The position numbers were made by a program, and so were the translations under genes. From positions 1 to 64,000 of the forward strand of contig JBDRYB010000003.1 of assembly GCA_039803205.1 (NCBI GenBank): a stretch of DNA of 64,000 nt, written 5' to 3'. Positions 51,759 through 64,000 of the stretch are shown one piece after another; position 1 is the stretch's first letter, and the number at the start of each line of letters is the position of its first letter. The notes under the pieces are model-generated. The model was not told the origin of the DNA. It made no database searches and saw only the letters and a list, made by a program, of their open reading frames with translations. The DNA is from a candidate division WOR-3 bacterium. GTDB lineage: Bacteria > Hydrothermota > Hydrothermia > JBDRYB01.

Positions 51759-53240
51759 CTAGAATATTATGGCCTTATCTCCTATGAAGTGCTCCCCGAA
51801 ACCTATGTGCCAGAAATATACGCCCGGCGAGATCAGCCCTGGGATGAACACGGAGTTCTTGCCCTCTCCGAATTCAGAAGTGAGGGAATAGACGAGCCTG
51901 CCGGAGGCATCGTATATCCTTATGGCCGTCTGACCGCTGGCCGGAAGGGTAAAGTGAATGGTCCTGCCGCTCATGTATCCGGCCAGTCCCTTCTGGCCCT
52001 CGGCTTCTTCAACCCCCACTACATCCACGGTGTAGAGAAAGCTGAGCTGAGGGGTCGTATTATACCAGTTTATGCAGACAGGCATCAGAACGAGGGTATC
52101 GTAATCAAGGGTTGGAACAGTGAAGGCCGCATATCCCTTATCGTCAGCCTCATGTTCATACACATCCGAAGGAACAGTTGGCCCTGACCTGTAGCCTATC
52201 ACGAGGACCTTCCATGTATAGTCATCCTCCCCGTCAAAGTAAAAGAAGAGGCTATCCGCAGAACCCCATGAATCAAAGACGATGCAGTCGCATCCCCCTG
52301 GCCCCCTTATCGGCAGTATTCCCTCGTTCCCTGAAGCGGGATAGGTATGGTGAGCTCTCAGGGTAAATATGGAGGCCCACAGGTTGGCCTCTGACCAGTG
52401 CCACTGATCCCAGTGGCCCCCCGTGAACCACCTCCAGGCCGCGTATTCTGTTAGGGCGTTCTCAAGGCTATCCCCGTAATCCCTCCTGAGAACGCCATCT
52501 ATGTCCCTCATGGTATGATTGCCCCAGTGAAGCCCGAGGGTATCCCAGATGGTTCTTATGATGTCCCTGTTGTTCTCCCAGAACATAAGGAAAAGGGGCC
52601 AGACCACGCCAGCGTATTCGTAGAGGTCGCTGGGGTTTGTCATGTGGGTTATTTCGTAATTGGGCCTTCTCAGGGGCCCTACGCCATTTATATAGCCTAT
52701 GTAGGTGTTGTCATCCGGATACACCATCTCCTCGGCCCACACCGCGCAGTTCTCAAAGAACCAAGTTCCATCCGAAACAGTGTATGAGAACTGGCAAGCG
52801 TGCATGAACTCGTGGCAGACCGTGCTCTTCATGTATCCGCCCAGGTTATCATCAACGGCTATGTAGGAATAAAAGTCCTCCTGATACGGGTCAGGGCCCT
52901 CTCCCTCTGGAGCGCAGTAGCCGAGAACACCTCCTGTAAGCCCGATTATGTGTATGTCATACCGGTTATCACCTCCGGCTCCGTTGTCAGGAGGGGGCGC
53001 ATCAAAGCCCAAAGAGTCAACCTCAATCTCCCAAGAATACTCAGCTATCTCCGCTATCTGCCTCGCGTAGTCCTCTGATACAGCATATGCGCCAGTTGTG
53101 TCGTAGTGGATCCTGAAGTGCGTCGTGTCGTATGTGGTCTGGTTTGCTGGGCGGGGCATCCTGATCCCGTGCTCAAGGATATGTGGCGTGCCACATATCC
53201 AATTTCCAAATAAACATAGTCCAAAAACCATGCCTGACAT
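51759..53240 (-). CDS. Secreted HExxH metalloprotease (MXAN_6640-like) with CTD
   Basis: 'HFRIHYDTTG', 'CHEFMHACQ', 'WFFENCAVWAEE'; CTD 'IYDASGRLV...PGVYF..KAIIF'. Confidence 0.82.
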   Translation of the reverse strand: MSGMVFGLCLFGNWICGTPHILEHGIRMPRPANQTTYDTTHFRIHYDTTGAYAVSEDYARQIAEIAEYSWEIEVDSLGFDAPPPDNGAGGDNRYDIHIIGLTGGVLGYCAPEGEGPDPYQEDFYSYIAVDDNLGGYMKSTVCHEFMHACQFSYTVSDGTWFFENCAVWAEEMVYPDDNTYIGYINGVGPLRRPNYEITHMTNPSDLYEYAGVVWPLFLMFWENNRDIIRTIWDTLGLHWGNHTMRDIDGVLRRDYGDSLENALTEYAAWRWFTGGHWDQWHWSEANLWASIFTLRAHHTYPASGNEGILPIRGPGGCDCIVFDSWGSADSLFFYFDGEDDYTWKVLVIGYRSGPTVPSDVYEHEADDKGYAAFTVPTLDYDTLVLMPVCINWYNTTPQLSFLYTVDVVGVEEAEGQKGLAGYMSGRTIHFTLPASGQTAIRIYDASGRLVYSLTSEFGEGKNSVFIPGLISPGVYFWHIGFGEHFIGDKAIIF

Positions 53241-53270
53241 CAAAGGCTCCTTTTAGAGCTGTAGCCCTCT

Positions 53271-54776
53271 TTATCTTATTACGGCCTTGCCCTGACGACT
53301 CTGACCAGCAAAGGAGAACTCCCAGAAATAGACGCCCCTGGCAATGGACCCTGGAAGAGAAAGCCTATTCTCGCCAGAGGGGAATTCTCCCACGAGATCA
53401 AAGGCCTTTCTGCCCGTGGCATCGTAGAGCCTCAGGGAAACCTCGCCTCCCCTCGGAAGGTTAAAGAGGAAGTCGCGGCCCGCGGAGGCCACTCTCAGGA
53501 ACTTATCAGGGACGCTCTCGTCCGCAGCAACGACATCAACCGTGTATTCAAAGTAAAGGTCTTGGGTATATGAACCATCAATCCAGTTGCAGACCACGGG
53601 AACCAAAATGAGGCTATCGTAATCCGCTGTGGGTATCTTGCTCGTGCCATAGCCGGTAATGTCGTCAACGGGTATTCTCATTGTATCGGATGGGTTCGCG
53701 GCCCCGGTCCTGTAGCCTATGACGAAGAGCTCCCAGTCATACCCATCAGAACCGTCAAAGTAGAAGTAAAGGGTGTCGTTGGGGTTGTAGTTGTAGAAAA
53801 CCACATAGTCGCACCCGCCAGCGCCTCTCGGGTAGAATATCCCTTGGTTGCCGGAGGCGGGATAGGAACCATGATACTTCACAACCGTAGCGGGTGGATA
53901 GAGGTTCGCCTCTGACCAGTGCCAATTATCCGCTCTCCCTCCGACGAACCATCTCCAAAGAGCGTAGTTCTCAAGGGCTGTCTTGAGATCGGTGCCGTAA
54001 TAGGTGGAAAGGACATAGTCTATATCCGAATAGGAATGCGCGCCGACATTCACCCCGTATCTGTGCCAAATCATCTCTATGATAGCTGTATCTTTCACCC
54101 AGAGCATCAGAAACAGGGCCCACACAACGCCGCCGTATTCGTAGAGATCGGTTGGATTGGTCATGTGGTTTATTTCGTAGTTGGGCCTCTTGAGGGGGCT
54201 TACCCCGTTCAGATAGCCCACATATTCGTTATCATTCGGGTAGCACATCTCCTCCCCCCACATGGCGCAGTTCTCCATGAACCATATGTTGGCCTGAGTT
54301 CCGAGTGAACGCTCGTATGCCATCTCGCAAGCGTGCATGAACTCGTGGACAACGGTTGCTCTGAGGACCGAAGCGTTCAGATTCTTGCCTATAACTATGT
54401 AGCTCGTGTAGCTCTGGGGGTAGTTGCCGCCAGGGCTTTCCGGAGCAGTGTATCCGAGGACGCCGCCTGTCAGATACTGGACATACATGTCATACAGGCT
54501 ATCCCCGCCCATAGACCCATCTGAAGGAGGCTTCTCAAAACCGAGCTGGGTCACATAGACACTCCACCCGTGCTCCGCATACATTGCTATGCTGTCCGCG
54601 TATGACTTCGGAACCGCGTGGGTCCCTGTTGTGTCATAGTGTATCTTGAAGTGGGTCGTGGTTATGTAGGTCTGGCAGGTTGGCCGGGCCTTCGGGCCCT
54701 TCTCATCAAACTCCTCTGCTATCTGAGCGGTGCCGCATATTCCCGGCACGCCAACGAGGGATAGTGCTATAAACAT
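53271..54776 (-). CDS. Secreted HExxH metalloprotease (MXAN_6640-like) with CTD, tandem paralog
   Basis: 'HFKIHYDTTG', 'VHEFMHACE', 'WFMENCAMWGEE'; CTD 'LYDATGR...RGVYF..GKAVIR'. Confidence 0.82.
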   Translation of the reverse strand: MFIALSLVGVPGICGTAQIAEEFDEKGPKARPTCQTYITTTHFKIHYDTTGTHAVPKSYADSIAMYAEHGWSVYVTQLGFEKPPSDGSMGGDSLYDMYVQYLTGGVLGYTAPESPGGNYPQSYTSYIVIGKNLNASVLRATVVHEFMHACEMAYERSLGTQANIWFMENCAMWGEEMCYPNDNEYVGYLNGVSPLKRPNYEINHMTNPTDLYEYGGVVWALFLMLWVKDTAIIEMIWHRYGVNVGAHSYSDIDYVLSTYYGTDLKTALENYALWRWFVGGRADNWHWSEANLYPPATVVKYHGSYPASGNQGIFYPRGAGGCDYVVFYNYNPNDTLYFYFDGSDGYDWELFVIGYRTGAANPSDTMRIPVDDITGYGTSKIPTADYDSLILVPVVCNWIDGSYTQDLYFEYTVDVVAADESVPDKFLRVASAGRDFLFNLPRGGEVSLRLYDATGRKAFDLVGEFPSGENRLSLPGSIARGVYFWEFSFAGQSRQGKAVIR

Positions 54777-56224: not shown

Positions 56225-57811
56225 CTATTCTCCGAAGGCTCTCTTTCTAAGTCTTCTGTAGTATTGCCTGTATTCATCAATGTAACGGTCATAAGGAAAT
56301 TCAGGCAAGAGATCGTCCACTGCTAGCTCCCGGGCCTTTGCCAGAAGCGATTCTTTTTCATCCTGCTCATGGGACGATTCGGATCTGACAACCAAGTTTT
56401 CCAGCTCGGAAAGGTCTGTCCAGACATCGCCCTCAAGCTGGTAAAAATCGTGCTTGTGCACAATGAGAACATTTCTATCAAGGACCCTCCTGGCAAAGGA
56501 TACTGCCTGATAAAGCAGTTCCCGGTTCTTCCTGTCATATCTCTTTCTAGGCCAGAGGAGGTAGAAGAGATGATCCGCAGCTATCCTGTGTTTTGAGGAC
56601 AGCAGGAGATAAATAAGAAACAAGGCTGATTTTCTGCTTCGCCATTCCAGAGGTTTTATTTCTTTCCCCTCCACATATATTCTTAGCTTTCCAATGAGAT
56701 AAGCCCTGATGCCCTTGTCTTTGTAGCTCTCTGATATTCCCGTCACCATAGGTTCCACCCTCAAGATGAACTCTCCGAGAATGGGGTCCTTTTTGGAATT
56801 AGGATATAGGGGGATGAGGTGGCCTATGAGTTTCAAAGATTTGGTAAAGACAGGGCTATCAGTTTCCCAGGCCAAATAGGCGGCAGTAAGGCCCGAGAAA
56901 AAGGCTTCTGTGTTCTGATAAGCCTTAATATAATTGTTCGTGGCCTCCAAAAGACCTTCTGCGGTTTCCAGATCACTTTCCTTAAGAAGTGCTTCGGCCT
57001 CTTGGGCCGCGGCTTGTTCAGCCCAGGCTCCCTTTCTTGCGAGTTTTATTGCTTTCCTTATGAGCGCTTTGGGCGGCGGCTCAAGTCCTGTAAGCCGAGA
57101 GATCTCAAGGGCCTTGGCCAGAGGGACAATTGCATAGACCGAACCAAAACTCAGATGCCCCTCAGCGGATTTCATAAAATAAACTATACTCTCGCGAAGC
57201 TCTCCTGCTATTCTCAAACAGATGGCTTTAATTTCCTCCAGGACGCAATAAAAGATGCCCTTCTTTTCACTTCTCATAAGCGCATCGGTCATCCTAATGG
57301 CTTTATGTGGGTTTCCGAAAAATAACTCATATATTATCAGATAATATTGAGCGGTTACGAGACGAATATCTCTGAGTTTCCCTTTGGATTTGATGCGGGA
57401 CACCTCACTAAAACAATCGCGGTATTTGCCTTTCATAAAAAGGATGTGGCAAAAAGCAAGAGAAATTGCGTCTTGTGAATCTTCATCACCCAGCTCTTGG
57501 GCGATATCTAGCGCTCTAAGATAATACCTTTCAGATAATTCCAGTTCTCCCAAATCTACATACGCGTTGCCCATCAACCTCAAAAGGTAAAGAGTTGAAG
57601 CAGGATCATCACTGAGACGACTGAGAAGCTGTTGACCCTTCTTGATGGTCTGAGTAAACATATTTTTGTTGATACATATCCCCACATTAGCCAAGGCAAA
57701 TGCTAAGGGATCATCCCTTTTGAGCCGCTCTAAATAGGCAACAAGCTTGTAGCTCATGCCTTCTAGCATGAACATCATGACAGCCTTCTTGGCCTTCTCG
57801 GCTCTGGTCAT
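56225..57811 (-). CDS. TPR plus SARP/BTAD-like transcriptional regulator
   Basis: N-terminal TPRs; C-terminal 'LIGKLRIYVEG...WRSRKS..LIYLLL...LWP' winged-helix and 'VWTDLSE' BTAD-start motifs; AT-rich. Confidence 0.75.
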   Translation of the reverse strand: MTRAEKAKKAVMMFMLEGMSYKLVAYLERLKRDDPLAFALANVGICINKNMFTQTIKKGQQLLSRLSDDPASTLYLLRLMGNAYVDLGELELSERYYLRALDIAQELGDEDSQDAISLAFCHILFMKGKYRDCFSEVSRIKSKGKLRDIRLVTAQYYLIIYELFFGNPHKAIRMTDALMRSEKKGIFYCVLEEIKAICLRIAGELRESIVYFMKSAEGHLSFGSVYAIVPLAKALEISRLTGLEPPPKALIRKAIKLARKGAWAEQAAAQEAEALLKESDLETAEGLLEATNNYIKAYQNTEAFFSGLTAAYLAWETDSPVFTKSLKLIGHLIPLYPNSKKDPILGEFILRVEPMVTGISESYKDKGIRAYLIGKLRIYVEGKEIKPLEWRSRKSALFLIYLLLSSKHRIAADHLFYLLWPRKRYDRKNRELLYQAVSFARRVLDRNVLIVHKHDFYQLEGDVWTDLSELENLVVRSESSHEQDEKESLLAKARELAVDDLLPEFPYDRYIDEYRQYYRRLRKRAFGE

Positions 57812-58025
57812 GGGAATAGTTTAGAGATAGAGAACGATCAGAATCAAGTCGGAGAAGCTCCTTCGTCCGCACTCAACATTAGATTTGCAGAGCATTCACA
57901 AGGAACGCACCGGTTCTGTTTCAGCTCTGTTTCAGTTGATTCCGTAAATATAGGCCCGTATGCACGGAGGCATAGAATAATGCAGATAACCTTGTTGGCA
58001 GCTCCTCAGACATGGAACGGTTGAT

Positions 58026-58187
58026 ATGGCTCCAAACAAACATGTATGCCTCCACTGCCCCAAACGGAGCAATGGTAGGCTTGTTCACCCCTGCAATCTC
58101 GCGGCAAGCGAGAACGGGATAAGCTTTGACTCTGGCGTCTATCTCTGGCACGCAGGGCCATATAAAGGAAAGGCAGTAGTGAGATGA
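58026..58187 (+). pseudogene. Orphan C-terminal module of the repeat-protein family (53-aa ORF or gene remnant)
   Basis: Translates to MAPNKHVCLHCPKRSNGRLVHPCNLAASENGISFDSGVYLWHAGPYKGKAVVR*, matching the CTD of three neighbours, with no passenger domain or signal peptide. It is not in the ORF track. Confidence 0.8.
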
Positions 58188-58192
58188 AAACT

Positions 58193-58264
58193 ATAGACCG
58201 GCTCCGGAACCTGCTCACCTCCTATTATGCCGGAGCCGGCCTATTTTTCTTTGAAAACGAAAAC
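58193..58264 (+). promoter_or_regulatory. Conserved intergenic stem-loop plus TTGAAAACGAAAAC motif (copy 1)
   Basis: CCGGCTCCGG(58198-58207)/CCGGAGCCGG(58230-58239); 22-nt loop with CACCTCC; pyrimidine tract; motif at 58251-58264. Confidence 0.7.
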
Positions 58265-58281
58265 AACCTGGAGATTTTATC

Positions 58282-59820
58282 ATGAACAACTTGCTGTTAG
58301 CTGTCATGGTTTCGCAGAACCTCTTCGCGAAGACCTATGGAGGGACGGGTAAGGAGTATGCCTATTCGGTAGCCAGGACCTCGGATGGCGGATATATAGT
58401 CGCTGGGGGCACGGCCAGCTACGGTGCTGGACAGGATGACTTCCTGGTCATCAAGATCTCGCCCACAGGAACCCCTGAATGGACAAGGACCTTCGGGGGA
58501 ACAAATATGGATGCCGCCTATTCCATAATCCAGACAACCGATGGGGGATATATGGTTGCTGGGGAAACCCGCAGTTTCGTGGCGGGAACCGCTGCTAACA
58601 TTGATTTTCTTGCGCTGAAGATCTCATCCACCGGAAACCCTGAGTGGGCAAGGACCTTTGGAGGAGCAAATGAGGATTTCTGTCGATCCATAATCCAGAC
58701 ATCAGATGGGGGATACGCACTTGTAGGGTTCACCAGAAGCTATGGTGTTGGGCTGGATGACTTTTTGATCATCAAAATCTCGTCTGCTGGGGCCCTTGAA
58801 TGGGCAAAGACATTCGGCGGAACGAATTATGATAATGCCTTCTCCATAGTACAGACCATAGACGGTGGTTATGTCGTTTCGGGTAGCACCATGAGCTTCG
58901 GGGCCGGCTACTGGGACCTTCTCTTGCTAAAGCTGTCGCCCACGGGAACCCTTGAGTGGGCGAGAACCTACGGGGGAGAAAATAATGACTTTACTACCTT
59001 ACCCGTGATACATACCGCTGACAGTGGTTTCATGTTCACGGGGCACACGGAGAGCTTTGGGGCCGGTGAAGCGGATCTGCTTGTCATGGAACTTTCGTCC
59101 ACCGGGGCTCCGGAGTGGACAAGAACCTTCGGAGGAACCGACTTGGATTGCGCTCGCTCTATAACCAGAACCGGGGATGGAGGGTTCGCGCTCGCAGGAT
59201 GGACATTGAGTTTTGGGGCTGGTTCTTGTGATTTCTTCATGATAAAGATTTCGTCCGCAGGAAGCCTTGAATGGGCAAGGACTTTCGGAGGGGAAGGTTG
59301 GGACGATCCCTTCTCTATGATCCAGACTCAGGATGGCGCCTACACGGTTGCAGGATGGACAACGGGCAGTTTTGATGGAAGTGACCCTGGCGATTTCCTT
59401 GTGATCAGGCTTGACCAGAACGGCAATTACCTGGATTGCATTCAGAGCTGTTCTCCTACCACAGGGCCAGCTTCCATTTCAATATCATCCCCTGGCGCGG
59501 ACCTTATTCCCTGTAATCCTTCTATAACCAACCCGAATCCAAGCGTCACGACTCCCGGACTTCAGGTATATGATGTCTGTCCACCCAGTTCTATTGAGGA
59601 GCCAGACAAAGTCCAAACATGGCCCCAGATCATTTGCGTATCTGATATAAGAGGGGTTATTTTCCATGCTTCCGGGGAAATGGAGATAAAGATCTACTCA
59701 TCCGATGGAAGGCTGTTCTGCTCCGAACAACTGCAGAGGGGACAGACCTCCATTCCTCTTGGCCAAGGAGTCTATCTCTGGCAAGCAGGACCCTATAAAG
59801 GAAAGGCTGTTGTAAGATGA
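58282..59820 (+). CDS. Secreted 'W(A/T)RTFGG' repeat beta-propeller protein with CTD
   Basis: About 7 repeats; Cys/Pro/Ser/Thr linker; ends GVYLWQAGPYKGKAVVR. Confidence 0.88.
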   Translation: MNNLLLAVMVSQNLFAKTYGGTGKEYAYSVARTSDGGYIVAGGTASYGAGQDDFLVIKISPTGTPEWTRTFGGTNMDAAYSIIQTTDGGYMVAGETRSFVAGTAANIDFLALKISSTGNPEWARTFGGANEDFCRSIIQTSDGGYALVGFTRSYGVGLDDFLIIKISSAGALEWAKTFGGTNYDNAFSIVQTIDGGYVVSGSTMSFGAGYWDLLLLKLSPTGTLEWARTYGGENNDFTTLPVIHTADSGFMFTGHTESFGAGEADLLVMELSSTGAPEWTRTFGGTDLDCARSITRTGDGGFALAGWTLSFGAGSCDFFMIKISSAGSLEWARTFGGEGWDDPFSMIQTQDGAYTVAGWTTGSFDGSDPGDFLVIRLDQNGNYLDCIQSCSPTTGPASISISSPGADLIPCNPSITNPNPSVTTPGLQVYDVCPPSSIEEPDKVQTWPQIICVSDIRGVIFHASGEMEIKIYSSDGRLFCSEQLQRGQTSIPLGQGVYLWQAGPYKGKAVVR

Positions 59821-59872
59821 GATTCTCTACACCAGACCAAGAGGCGAGTAGCTTCCGGGATATGCTTTACAA

Positions 59873-61162
59873 TCATTCCCCTGGATTCAGGACGATCGTC
59901 CTCGTATCCACTATATTTCCATGAGATGAGAGGGCCAGGAAGCAAACGCCCTTACCTATGCCATCAAGGCTAATGGAGTGCCTTCCGGGTTCAAGAGACC
60001 AGGTTCTCAGTTCCCTGCCAATAGGATCATAAGCTGTCAGTTGGCCTGCCTTGGTAAGCCTGATTTCAACGGAAACAGTAGAGAGCATAACGATGCTGTT
60101 CTCCTTTGGCCCTGAACTCTCTCCAATCTCAAGGGGAGGGCATCCTCTGTGCGCGTAGTAGAGATCGCCAGACCTGTAATATGCTATCCTGGGGCAGTCA
60201 TCTGAGCCCACCTGAAGGCTCCTGTCTGTCATCCAGTAACCTGCCCATGTATTGGGGTCAGCAACCTCTATCGTCCAAGATGATCCATTCCACACAGCAT
60301 ATTTTAGCCTCTGGTTGGTCACATCGTAGTAGGCTATGTGCGGCCTGTCCTGGGAATCCAGGGCCAAAGAGGTATAACGCCCGACATCGCCCGCGGTGTC
60401 AACCGTCTGTATCTGCCAGGATGAGCCGTTCCAGTAGGCGTATTTGAGGTCCCGCTTGGCCGCTGATGAATCGTAGTAGGATATGTGGGGCCTGTCCTGG
60501 GAGTCAATAGCGATGGATGTCCAGAGGCCAACGGATCCAGCTGTGTCAACCTTCTGGGTCTGCCAGGATGAGCCATTCCAATAGGCGTATTTTAGATCAC
60601 GAGCACTGGCCCCGAAGCTGTAATAGGCTATGTGAGGCCTGTCTTGGGAATCCAGAGCCAAAGAGGTGCAAATCCCCAGTATATCTACCTGCTGTAGCAC
60701 CCATGCCGAGCCGTTCCAGTAGGCATACTGAATTATGCTGTAGCCATTATCAGAATAGGCTATGCACGGTCTATCCAGAGAATTAAGGGCCAGAGATGTC
60801 CAGAGCGTATTCCCTACGGTATCAACAGTCTGTCTCTGCCACGAGGAACCGTTCCAGTAAGCATACTTGAGATCCGAGTTCACGCCGTCTATCCAGTAGC
60901 TGTATGAGATGCACGGCCTATCCTGGGAATCCAGGTCCACAGAGACATAGCCACCAGAGGCGCTCCCTATGGTGTCAACCCTCTGCGTCTGCCACCCTGA
61001 GCCGGCCCATCTCGCGTATTTCACGCCATATGTTGTGAAATCGCAGTAGGCTATGTGCGGCCAGTCCTGAGAGTCCAGAGCCAGGGCCGCGTAGTAGCCA
61101 ACATCTCCAGGCGCGTCCACCTGGAGCCAGCTCCACTGAGCTAAAAAGAGCCATACCATCAT
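59873..61162 (-). CDS. Secreted repeat beta-propeller protein with CTD-like tail
   Basis: Repeats 'WQTQ.VDT.G.VG..TSLALDSQDRPHIAYY....LKYAYWNGSS'; tail 'YDPIGR...GKGVCFL'; GGAGG RBS. Confidence 0.85.
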   Translation of the reverse strand: MMVWLFLAQWSWLQVDAPGDVGYYAALALDSQDWPHIAYCDFTTYGVKYARWAGSGWQTQRVDTIGSASGGYVSVDLDSQDRPCISYSYWIDGVNSDLKYAYWNGSSWQRQTVDTVGNTLWTSLALNSLDRPCIAYSDNGYSIIQYAYWNGSAWVLQQVDILGICTSLALDSQDRPHIAYYSFGASARDLKYAYWNGSSWQTQKVDTAGSVGLWTSIAIDSQDRPHISYYDSSAAKRDLKYAYWNGSSWQIQTVDTAGDVGRYTSLALDSQDRPHIAYYDVTNQRLKYAVWNGSSWTIEVADPNTWAGYWMTDRSLQVGSDDCPRIAYYRSGDLYYAHRGCPPLEIGESSGPKENSIVMLSTVSVEIRLTKAGQLTAYDPIGRELRTWSLEPGRHSISLDGIGKGVCFLALSSHGNIVDTRTIVLNPGE

Positions 61163-61184
61163 CTTAAAAACCTCCTCGTTTAAG

Positions 61185-61250
61185 GTTTTTGTTTTCAAGG
61201 GAAACACGGGCTGACCGGAGGTCGTTCTGAAGAACGAGCCGTTCCGGCCG
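61185..61250 (-). promoter_or_regulatory. Conserved intergenic element (copy 3, divergent stem)
   Basis: Minus strand GGCCGGA...GACCTCCGGTC stem containing ACCTCC, then CCTTGAAAACAAAAAC (61185-61198) before the RBS. Confidence 0.55.
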
Positions 61251-61354
61251 ATACCCCTGTATTTTCTCGCACAGGGTCGCGGCAAACACGATCATTCCCA
61301 GCATAATCCCAGTATGAATTATCACGAATGGGTTTGCGAGCCTTTCCCTTATAT

Positions 61355-61436
61355 TCATCTCACAACCGCCTTTCCTTTATATGGCCCTGCCTGCCATAGA
61401 TAGACGCCAGGATCAAGGGGGATGCGGGTTTGGCCC
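61355..61436 (-). repeat. 82-nt 3'-end repeat shared with 62976-63057 (shorter homologs at ~58134-58187 and ~59767-59820)
   Basis: Manual alignment gives 75/82 identity, with all 7 differences at synonymous positions. Confidence 0.85.
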
Positions 61437-62881
61437 GCGATTAGATGTGTTGAAGAGGACAGGCGGCCATCCGGAGAATATATTTTCAATTCGGCCTCAG
61501 CTGTCGCATTGAAAATGAGAGCATGGGAAACTGGAAAACAGATCACTTCTGCGTCAAACCCGGCAGTCTCATCAACGCTTTCATAGACAGGGGCACAGAT
61601 ATTGACTGATAGTGGTGTAATTGGTGGCGTCACAGAAATACCGGGGGTTCCGGTGGAGTGAGTCCATGGGGATGGGGACACGGAAAGATTTGAGGTAGCA
61701 AAAGTGGGAGTGACGAGACCCGGAGATTGATCAAGCACACACCCAGAATAGGTTCCGTCTGCGGCTGTTCTAAGCAGAAACCCATCCCTTTGGTTAAAGT
61801 CAAAGGTGGTGCCAGCGATCGCAAGACTGCCATCCGGGAGCTGGAGGACAGAAAAAGCCCTCTCCCAACCTAAGGCATTGAATGTCTTTGTCCAAAACAA
61901 ACTCCCGTCGGCTGAGCTGAACTTCATGATCTGAGCCTCGTCCCCAAACGGAGGTAGAATTTTCGTTTTGCCCACGACCACGAACCCTTCATCTGCCGTT
62001 TGGATTATGGAGTTGCCAATTTCCTGTACGCCTGTCGTTGTTTTTGCCCAGGAAAGGTTTCCAAGAGAGTTTGTCCTGATAACCATAAGTCTTGGTATAT
62101 CCGCGAGATCAGGATCCGTCGCACCGGTTATGGCAAATCCACCATCCGAGGTTGGGACTACGGATAGGCCCACATCAAATATTGAATGATTTCCGTCAAC
62201 CATACCGTAGAAGGCTTTTGCTCTTCCTACGGATCCATCGGGGTTCAATACCAGTAACAGGGTGGCATTCTCTAAGGTAAAATCAATGTATTCCCCGGTA
62301 AAAACATAGCCGTCATCGTATGTCTGGGTCATGAATACATCCTGGGCCCGTGTATTGTATGACTTAGCCCAGCTTTCGTTTCCGGCCGCGGTAAGCTTGA
62401 GAAGCAGTATATTGGAATTATCAGACCCTCCTACTGCGTATCCCCCGACCCCTGGGGTCTCAATTACGGACCTGGCTTCTTCCCAACCCGAGGTTCCAAA
62501 GGTCTTCGCCCATGAAATATTTCCATCCTGATCCAGCCTCAGTACGAGCATATCTCTTGAACCAGCGCCGAAACTCTCTGTGTAACCAGCTATAACAAAG
62601 CCTCCGTCATCTGTGCATATCACAGACCAAGCGCCGTCATTATTTGCTCCTCCGTATGCCTTGGCCCATTGGATATTTTTGCCATCCGAGGTTAACACAA
62701 CGAGTAAAGCATCCGTGCCTCCGGCACCATAACTATTCGTTGTTCCCGCCAACGCAAAACCTCCACTGCCAGGCATCCGTGCCACGGAGTAGATGTATTC
62801 ATCACCCGTTGTCCAACCATAAGTTTTAGCAAATAGCGTCAAGGCCACAAGCACATCCATCATTATAAAGAGCCCTGTCAT
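61355..62881 (-). CDS. Secreted 'WAKTFG' repeat beta-propeller protein with CTD
   Basis: Same repeat family; ends GQTRIPLDPGVYLWQAGPYKGKAVVR. Confidence 0.88.
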   Translation of the reverse strand: MTGLFIMMDVLVALTLFAKTYGWTTGDEYIYSVARMPGSGGFALAGTTNSYGAGGTDALLVVLTSDGKNIQWAKAYGGANNDGAWSVICTDDGGFVIAGYTESFGAGSRDMLVLRLDQDGNISWAKTFGTSGWEEARSVIETPGVGGYAVGGSDNSNILLLKLTAAGNESWAKSYNTRAQDVFMTQTYDDGYVFTGEYIDFTLENATLLLVLNPDGSVGRAKAFYGMVDGNHSIFDVGLSVVPTSDGGFAITGATDPDLADIPRLMVIRTNSLGNLSWAKTTTGVQEIGNSIIQTADEGFVVVGKTKILPPFGDEAQIMKFSSADGSLFWTKTFNALGWERAFSVLQLPDGSLAIAGTTFDFNQRDGFLLRTAADGTYSGCVLDQSPGLVTPTFATSNLSVSPSPWTHSTGTPGISVTPPITPLSVNICAPVYESVDETAGFDAEVICFPVSHALIFNATAEAELKIYSPDGRLSSSTHLIAGQTRIPLDPGVYLWQAGPYKGKAVVR

Positions 62882-62898
62882 GTTAAAGCCTCCGTATG

Positions 62899-62967
62899 GT
62901 TTTTGTTTTCAAAGCAAATGCAGGCCGGCCGGGTTTTAACGGGAGGTGCAGAGATCCCCGGCCGGCC
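62899..62967 (-). promoter_or_regulatory. Conserved intergenic stem-loop plus TTGAAAACAAAAAC motif (copy 2)
   Basis: Perfect 11-bp stem GGCCGGCCGGG/CCCGGCCGGCC (62923-62933, 62957-62967); 23-nt loop with CACCTCC on the minus strand; motif at 62899-62912. Confidence 0.7.
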
Positions 62968-62975
62968 CTTTGTTT

Positions 62976-64000
62976 TCATCTTACCACTGCCTTTCCTTTA
63001 TATGGCCCCGCTTGCCACAGATAGACGCCGGGATCAAGGGGGATGCGGGTTTGGCCCTTCTTGAGCTCCCCGGAGTAAGCGAGACGGCCATCGGCTCCGT
63101 ATATCCTTAAATCAATATCTTCCCATAGGCTAAAAAGAAGGCCTCCGGAAACAAGAGAACAGGTTATCCTGTCTTTCAACACTGCGGCCTCGTTTTCTCG
63201 TGCGTCAAGGGGGGCACAGAGATCTGTCACAATGAGTGTGGGCGCAGTTATTACTGGGCTTGCAGCTCCCATGGACGGGATATAATTCACTCCCACAGAA
63301 CGGGAAGAAGTGTTCGGAGACCAGGCATTGATAGAGGGCGAACAAGAGCTCACACATCCAGGATAATCCCCATTACCGTCCACCTTTAGGAGGAGAAATC
63401 CTTGATCAACATACCCCATAATAGCAAGATCCCCATCCTGGGTTGGAATTATGCAATTAGCGCCATCATCGCTTGATGTCCCAAAGGTTCTGGCTCCCAA
63501 AAGGTTTCCAGAAGCATCCAGCTTGACAACGAAGAAATCCTCACCACCTATACCAAAACTCTTCGTACCTCCAGCGATCACGAGATCGCCATCCTGAGTC
63601 TGCATTATAGATCTCCCGTCATCGTCGTTCACGCCACCTATGGTTTTGGCCCAAGAAAGAGAACCATCCGAAGCTAGTTTGAGCACGAAGAGATCATGCC
63701 CTCCAACACCGGAGCTCTGTGTATGTCCTGTGATTACAAAGCCGCCGTCAAAGGTCTGGATTATAGCTGTGGGACAACCTGGCTCTTCATCGCTTGAACC
63801 CCCAAAGGTCCTAGCCCATATGGGAGAACCATTTGAGTTCAACCTGAGTATAAGTAAATCACTGCCGCCCACGGTAAAACTTCTTGTCCATCCTGCGACC
63901 GCAAAACCGCCATCTGTTGTTTGAACTATGGAGTGGGCTATGTCTTGATTTGTTCCCCCATAGGTCCAGGCCCACATAAAGTTCCCATTCGCATCCGTCT
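62976..64000 (-). CDS. Secreted 'WARTFGG' repeat protein with CTD (5' end beyond window)
   Basis: The frame stays open to the window edge; ends GQTRIPLDPGVYLWQAGPYKGKAVVR. Confidence 0.88.
   Translation of the reverse strand, partial: TDANGNFMWAWTYGGTNQDIAHSIVQTTDGGFAVAGWTRSFTVGGSDLLILRLNSNGSPIWARTFGGSSDEEPGCPTAIIQTFDGGFVITGHTQSSGVGGHDLFVLKLASDGSLSWAKTIGGVNDDDGRSIMQTQDGDLVIAGGTKSFGIGGEDFFVVKLDASGNLLGARTFGTSSDDGANCIIPTQDGDLAIMGYVDQGFLLLKVDGNGDYPGCVSSCSPSINAWSPNTSSRSVGVNYIPSMGAASPVITAPTLIVTDLCAPLDARENEAAVLKDRITCSLVSGGLLFSLWEDIDLRIYGADGRLAYSGELKKGQTRIPLDPGVYLWQAGPYKGKAVVR

Follow-up and report, generated by a model that had tools for sequence, protein, structure and literature searches.

A shared 3′ module as the probable site of gene conversion and cargo exchange in an array of predicted type IX secretion genes from a candidate division WOR-3 bacterium

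The stretch of DNA analysed here, called the window throughout, comprises positions 1–64000 of contig C3 in the genome of a candidate division WOR-3 bacterium (G000; 2.3 Mb, 96% complete). At its right-hand end, two rows of genes for repeat proteins, predicted to be cargo of the type IX secretion system (T9SS), converge on each other beside a gene for a regulator with TPR and SARP-like parts. The genome was compared with two others of the genus (G001 and G002) and with 28 further genomes of the class; numbers with the prefix L denote loci in relatives. These comparisons led us to the view that the gene tails have probably been homogenised, and the passengers (the regions in front of the tails) exchanged, through RecA recombination combined with loss of MutS and MutL, in an array with a TPR-SARP-like activator as its neighbour.

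The locus runs from the regulator through promoter 1, a decayed gene and the gene at 58282 to the oppositely oriented BNR gene and genes E, D, C, B and A, which are read from promoter 2. The regulator gene (56225–57811, minus strand) encodes 528 residues, with a TPR superhelix (about 1–357) followed by a C-terminal SARP-like winged helix and a truncated BTAD. On the plus strand, a predicted activator box (57914–57935), in which TCTGTTTCAG occurs twice as a direct repeat with an 11-bp period, is followed after 8–9 bp by a −10-like element (57945–57951). The decayed first gene (57980–58187) has an early stop and has lost its passenger but kept its C-terminal domain (CTD), the tail copy lying at 58134–58187. 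Behind it stand a GC-rich hairpin (58196–58241, z −3.7) with CACCTCC at 58216–58222 in its 22-nt loop, an A-rich leader with a ribosome-binding site that is common to other modules (58242–58281), and the gene for a 512-residue DUF5122/delta-60-type repeat protein (58282–59820), which has a Pro/Ser/Thr stalk, a T9SS-like CTD and a tail at 59767–59820, and no hairpin after it. The minus strand carries the gene for a BNR_4 repeat protein (59873–61159), which has a differing tail and, being 81% identical in G002 and in L120, served as the synteny anchor. Next come gene E (61355–62881, 508 residues, tail 61355–61436), its module leader with ribosome-binding site (62882–62922), a GC-rich hairpin (62923–62967) with GCACCTCCCG in its 23-nt loop (motif 62942–62948), and the 3′ part of gene D (62976–64000, tail 62976–63057), a 504-residue repeat protein whose start lies near C3 64490. 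Past the window end follow genes C (C3 64585–66138) and B (66206–68371), both with tail and hairpin, the FG-GAP gene A (68347–69960), a second operon box on the minus strand (about 70006) that nearly copies the one at 57914–57935, a multicopy repeat (70050–70320) and the broken end of a second regulator (70266–70457). Promoter 1 with the start of the decayed gene matches promoter 2 with the start of gene A over 126 nt at 80%. The fragment that the first-pass annotation had called an orphan therefore has the tail ascribed to it but is not a standalone piece: a decayed gene without its passenger starts at 57980, the fragment being its 3′ terminus, and both operons have the same box. The repeat at 70050–70320, found at many contig ends too, replaces most of the second regulator, which is intact in G001, where it adjoins an M42 peptidase gene. 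A 64-aa open reading frame (ORF) with a hydrophobic stretch (61164–61358, minus strand) overlaps the gene E stop as well as a degenerate hairpin and leader (61181–61218). It occurs once in G000 and has a 59%-identical counterpart in G002 that differs at many third positions; its candidate product is a small membrane peptide.

The cargo falls into the DUF5122/delta-60-type, BNR_4 and FG-GAP families of repeat proteins; the 58282 product is a predicted propeller on account of its repeat-family matches. The N-termini show a short hydrophobic stretch of about 12–16 residues with few or no charges. A short type of CTD is common to about 50 genes in the genome, and the array tail, PGVYLWQAGPYKGKAVVR, carries PxGxY and KxxxK motifs in its last 22 residues, which is where the accessible text of an earlier study places the T9SS signal PxGxY..KxxxK (PMC5445135). 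Of the machinery components searched for, SprA was found in 31 of 31 genomes, and G000 has PorV-like and C25 peptidase genes. The array genes are thus predicted to encode T9SS cargo, which would be secreted and displayed on the cell surface. Elsewhere in the window (51759–54776, minus strand), two tandem MXAN_6640-family HExxH metalloprotease-like genes have T9SS-like tails.

Each of the four tail copies that the first-pass annotation had listed was found in place. The exact end GVYLW(Q/H)AGPYKGKAVVR* occurs in six ORFs of the 2.3-Mb genome, and since all six sit at the array locus, their likeness is not a matter of chance. The plus-strand tails (58134–58187 and 59767–59820) are 87% identical over 54 nt, and the minus-strand tails (61346–61436 and 62967–63057) 89% identical over 91 nt. 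The module to which they belong, consisting of the last 27 or so codons (the secretion signal), the 45-nt hairpin and the 40-nt leader, measures about 180 nt and is the longest high-identity stretch between neighbouring genes. It is not unique to this locus, the genome having about 20 regulator-cargo units of this kind. Inverted repeats of about 130 nt had also been described around the 58.2–63.0 kb block. The repeat is real (58072–58202 against 62961–63091, 131 nt at 71%, or 161 nt at 75.8% with gaps), and so are the hairpins after both copies, but the copy at 62976 is not the outermost one, with two more tail-and-hairpin genes and the FG-GAP gene lying past the window end. The suggested inversion of the block was not borne out. 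Between the outer window copies an inversion is no more than a possibility: the arms share an exact run of at most 23 nt, and the inner convergent layout (plus-strand gene, BNR gene, minus-strand gene) is the same in G002. An assembly artefact was rejected, as the copies differ by 7–29% and G002 and L120 independently have the same kind of structure.

Silent sites were compared among the 37 of the 50 genes whose tails align without gaps (29 same-array pairs among 666), with significance obtained by permutation. In the last 27 codons, identity at four-fold-degenerate sites was 0.59 (185/313) for same-array pairs versus 0.39 (1953/5034) for the others (p = 0.0003). The corresponding values were 0.33 and 0.31 in the upstream part of the CTD (p = 0.26) and 0.29 and 0.30 in the passengers (p = 0.65). 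Trees built with FastTree grouped the tails by array, with all five C3 genes, including the plus-strand one, together at 0.92. In approximately unbiased (AU) tests the tail and passenger trees rejected each other (p = 1e-39 and 1e-26), a result weakened by the saturation of the passengers, whose tree is star-like and poorly resolved. The comparison of CTD and passenger phylogenies proposed in the first-pass annotation thus yielded incongruent trees, and not the congruent ones expected from ordinary duplication.

The relatives differ in what stands in front of the tails. Synteny with G002 extends over 59475–61476 at 74.7% identity and ends inside the CTD of gene E; in the gene E slot the G002 passenger is non-orthologous (32.5%), next to the BNR neighbour at 81%. 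G000, L120 and G002 each have a different passenger in the slot before the BNR gene, the gene order being A, B, C, D, E, BNR in G000, ...F, D, G, H, A, BNR in L120 and H, BNR in G002. Passenger H is 64% identical between L120 and G002. Passenger D and its L120 orthologue m3473 share 58% identity and their tails are just 79% alike, whereas two paralogous tails within L120 are 98% alike and the four minus-strand tails of G000 86–92%. The two convergent G002 tails have a common 30-nt insertion that is absent in both G000 counterparts, although a repeat may have entered the same site independently. This insertion (L030, G002 contig C132) is in frame, begins with GTAG and can form a hairpin, like a repetitive extragenic palindromic (REP) element. 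Unrelated G002 passengers share 60–180 nt of tail, two of them sharing 180 nt of CTD at 90–100%. Among the 53 CTD ORFs in the compared regions of G001 and G002, nine occupy a G000 slot, 33 correspond to G000 positions that lack a short-type CTD gene, and 11 were left unplaced. Order and content are therefore not fixed among these close relatives; this, together with the incongruent trees, supports the proposal of the first-pass annotation that the unit of CTD, hairpin and leader is a hub of gene conversion and cargo exchange. From the sequences, recombination at the tail over evolutionary time is well supported.

Traces of rearrangement were also seen in G001. At L016, L031, L032 and L061, two or three stacked hairpins are separated by gene-free DNA or a CTD remnant and look like the scars of deletions. 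At L010/L089 (contig C146, 1480–1830), an orphan CTD has on one side the gene next to which the C5 regulator stands in G000, and on the other nfeD, a neighbour of the C3 locus. Rearrangement breakpoints may coincide with regulator-cargo loci.

Could the array have arisen by tandem duplication long ago, purifying selection having kept the T9SS signal and a terminator alike with no exchange? The shared tract does match the PxGxY..KxxxK signal of the last 22 residues, genes C and E are old paralogues (45%), and three slots are stable. Such a history, however, does not account for silent sites homogenised by array, for tails that are genome-specific across orthologues, for a derived insertion common to both G002 tails, or for slots swapped between relatives. 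We regard it as largely refuted and quite improbable.

Cargo genes might instead be moved or deleted by insertion sequences (IS) or by repeats resembling miniature inverted-repeat transposable elements, with the module as a passive passenger or target. The multicopy repeat lies where the second regulator was destroyed, and an IS-like end stands directly after leaders or tails of several cargo genes, at about 11 G000 sites (including C1 239451, C16 37576 and C21 10924). About ten dispersed, near-identical CTDs in G002 (L011, L015, L052 and L072–L079, most of them at contig ends) are followed on the 3′ side by a shared repeat of about 140 nt, of which G000 has a dozen or more copies; the 33 CTD ORFs of the relatives that have no counterpart in place also fit mobile cargo. 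On the other hand, neither the array-specific silent homogenisation nor the breakpoints inside the CTD would be explained in this way, and the window contains none of the transposase families searched for. Mobile elements as the main cause are thus very unlikely.

A survey of five recombinase families found no dedicated recombinase among them and, as the first-pass annotation had stated, none in the window. Tyrosine recombinases number two each in G001 and G002, and G000 gave seven matches. Two of these are conserved and score as XerD and XerC; the remaining five are on contigs other than C3 and have no matching count in G001 or G002. The conserved pair reached 111 and 115 bits on the IntI model TIGR02249, whose cut-off is 265. 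Reverse transcriptase and IS110 were each found in none of the three genus genomes, a resolvase in G000 alone and a Y1 transposase in two of the three, neither of the latter in the window. The attC cores RYYYAAC...GTTRRRY were absent from all six modules on either strand. An integron was rejected on the IntI scores of the conserved pair and the missing attC cores, and a shufflon or other invertible locus on the lack of an invertase in the window, the arm identity of 71–76% and the same inner layout in G002; a diversity-generating retroelement was rejected with the reverse transcriptase count. The specialised cassette or shuffling system that had been envisaged thus finds no support. A dedicated site-specific system of integron or shufflon type, using the hairpin as its site and an enzyme encoded elsewhere, would suit the hairpin conserved after CTD genes (26/27), the stacked hairpins and orphan CTDs that look like excision scars, and the copies in both orientations, but it is highly improbable given this recombinase inventory, the absent attC cores, the convergent layout kept in G002, and shared tracts that range in length from about 60 to 180 nt and have their upstream ends inside the CTD, at no fixed site.

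RecA was present in all three genus genomes. MutS_I was found in none of them versus 28 of the 28 other class genomes, and MutL in none versus 25 of 28; NucS was likewise found in none of the three. From established knowledge, loss of mismatch repair would permit exchange between modules that are 75–95% identical. We propose that ordinary RecA recombination acts at the tail module, eased by the loss of MutS and MutL, whose causal part we infer. Conversion inside the module would keep neighbouring tails alike, because the module is the longest high-identity stretch between neighbours, and crossovers inside it would delete, duplicate, reorder or replace whole passengers. The adjacent TPR-SARP-like activator would switch the array on.

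The structural model of the regulator (pLDDT 93) shows TPR helices to about residue 357 and a DNA-binding part with a winged-helix unit from near residue 365. It superposes on AfsR (8hvr_I) with a root-mean-square deviation of 3.2 over 172 columns (E 1.4e-3) and on Rap-type TPR proteins with TMt 0.66, both weak scores. The window regulator has no Pfam BTAD match and about 62 residues fewer than the paralogue on C2, whose BTAD is full (1e-12). The label TPR-SARP/BTAD in the earlier annotation thus fits the TPR part and the SARP-like fold, the BTAD being truncated. G000 has 20 full-length paralogues, G001 gave 16 matches and G002 five; in the 28 other class genomes weak TPR-type matches alone were obtained, in seven of them. 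Relatives were not found in wider contig scans, from which near genomes may be left out, and the named close homologues belong to candidate division WOR-3. Most of the paralogues listed stand back to back with a cargo operon. For 17 of the 20, a run of 7 nt or more recurs exactly at a period of 11 just upstream of a −10-like element, compared with 4.9% of 1204 control upstream regions; periods of 9, 10, 12 and 13 gave at most 1 in 20. In the accessible text on SARP activators, their boxes consist of heptamers repeated directly every 11 bp across the −35 region (PMC10972967). In two pairs of regulator orthologues the box is kept across genomes. A G002 regulator (L014, C38 12839–14518) has a DNA-binding domain 76% identical to that of the window regulator and a similar TGTTTCAG box, but its TPR segments are 16–44% identical, so that the regulators look mosaic. 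The regulator next to the array very probably has its own adjacent box, as judged from sequence, and likely binds it and activates the array. The description of it as dedicated holds to that extent and not as regards exclusivity: the box of the C16 paralogue, TCTTTCAG, is one base from the window box, which makes a dedicated regulator likely but not certain. On G000 contig C38, cargo promoters at about 616 and 6133 have the C16 regulator box, and no regulator match lies on that contig, suggesting action of the C16 regulator in trans.

The hairpin is a recurrent element of these arrays. In G000, 27 of 532 CACCTCC sites lie in the loop of a strong hairpin, compared with 0–4 for five shuffled 7-mers. 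All 27 hairpins are sense-oriented and lie no more than 90 nt from the end of an ORF. A CTD-type tail, of more than one type, precedes 26 of them; the exception (C4 122180–122700, minus strand) stands in a regulator-driven operon after a short non-CTD first gene. In 39 of 41 copies brought into register, pairing holds in 443 of 468 stem cells, and most positions show changes on both sides; the paired fraction is partly circular because the copies were selected as hairpins. The loops span 17–30 nt. A covariance model gave strong matches in the three genus genomes alone (at most 150 candidates scored per genome), and Rfam had no match in 57800–64000 beyond four at chance level (E 1.3–4.1). The loop mirrors the 3′ end of the genome's 16S rRNA, that is, it is anti-Shine-Dalgarno-like. 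Its match to the first ribosome-binding site of its own operon was borderline (p = 0.05, 16 arrays), and for the site of the next gene no preference was seen (mean rank 0.63). In the C3 array and the array at C1 239–249 kb, the loops can be aligned with the region of the first gene's ribosome-binding site for about 13 nt, with a single bulge, which is not general. We presume that the hairpin is a leaky terminator or 3′ stabiliser whose loop may have a further role; being conserved, it lengthens the recombining module. A literature search returned no paper on a hairpin with an anti-Shine-Dalgarno loop.

Several observations weigh against the proposed exchange at the tail module under its adjacent activator. 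The exchange evidence comes from comparing relatives and not from within a population, and in four full-length slot comparisons three slots were stable (82–89%) and one was swapped. The tract that is homogenised is also that of the 22-residue T9SS signal, which means that selection contributes to the likeness of the tails. PF18962 has 64 matches in the genome, none on array genes. On the regulatory side, the C16 paralogue could serve the array promoters, and covariation between helix and box is weak, with Mantel r = 0.19 (p = 0.047) in one of three tests, the other two giving p = 0.12 for the box against the whole DNA-binding domain and p = 0.64 against the TPR part. As for the link with repair, the three genus genomes are 86–98% complete and form one lineage, which represents one loss event. 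Even with these points taken into account, we consider homogenisation of tails and exchange of passengers by RecA recombination the probable history of the array.

More speculatively, the arrays might form a recombinase-free combinatorial surface repertoire, in which about 20 orthogonal sensor-activator circuits with private boxes control exchangeable T9SS cassettes, the module is selected as a recombination socket, repair loss speeds diversification of the population, the sensor and DNA-binding halves of regulators are re-paired, and the anti-Shine-Dalgarno loop RNA tunes cargo translation. We hold this extended picture as tentative and, taken as a whole, rather unlikely.

The underlying process of conversion and unequal crossover is ordinary. 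The twenty paralogous activators with distinct boxes constitute a natural set for studying the SARP recognition code, and the analysis brings to light T9SS genes, SARP-like regulation and a new family of RNA hairpins in WOR-3. Our literature search retrieved no paper on T9SS in WOR-3, and in the accessible main text of the WOR-3 papers examined the words 'secretion', 'propeller' and 'sorting' do not occur.

Among known systems, integrons and shufflons have units of gene and hairpin in a row or inverted copies. The WOR-3 arrays differ from them in that no integrase or invertase is common to the three genomes, attC cores are absent and there is no fixed crossover site. Intrinsic terminators have a GC-rich stem with a run of T, and small RNAs of the cuckoo and CcsR type present a C-rich anti-Shine-Dalgarno loop that mirrors the 16S 3′ end. 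The WOR-3 hairpin, in contrast, is a single stem with a 17–30-nt loop, stands after cargo genes alone and has no Rfam match in 57800–64000. In the SARP activators AfsR, ActII-ORF4 and DnrI, a winged helix is followed by the BTAD, according to the accessible part of a published account (PMC10972967). The WOR-3 regulators are alike in the winged-helix fold and in the 11-bp-period repeats of the box. They are distinct in that the SARP unit is not N-terminal but C-terminal, behind a TPR domain of about 355 residues that is of Rap-like size, the BTAD of the window regulator is about 62 residues shorter, the boxes of the twenty paralogues differ for the most part, and predicted secreted proteins are the targets.

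The KLIKK proteases of Tannerella forsythia are clustered T9SS cargo with a nearly identical CTD and different passengers; the motifs that they have in common disturb assembly, in one strain a locus is broken up by a rearrangement, and in the accessible text no mechanism is given for the CTD similarity (PMC4404884, PMC7014623). The C3 array is likewise a cluster of predicted T9SS cargo with a common CTD, but its cargo consists of repeat or propeller proteins and not proteases, the WOR-3 set comprises about 50 genes with array- and genome-specific tails, and each unit has a hairpin and a private activator. In homA/homB and babA/babB of Helicobacter pylori, as far as the available text reports, a 3′ segment evolves in concert by intragenomic conversion, with exchange between loci and remnants at empty loci (PMC2795765). 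The array tails resemble this case in that those of paralogues in one genome are closer to each other than those of orthologues. The hom and bab genes are two or three dispersed outer-membrane paralogues, whereas the WOR-3 genes form tandem operons, their swaps involve non-homologous passengers, and the module is partly non-coding. Conversion and crossover at a tail module would offer a testable mechanism for the open KLIKK puzzle of how distinct T9SS cargos come to have CTDs that are nearly identical. By analogy, the locus appears to work like the 3′-segment conversion of hom and bab and to look like the CTD clusters of the KLIKK proteases.

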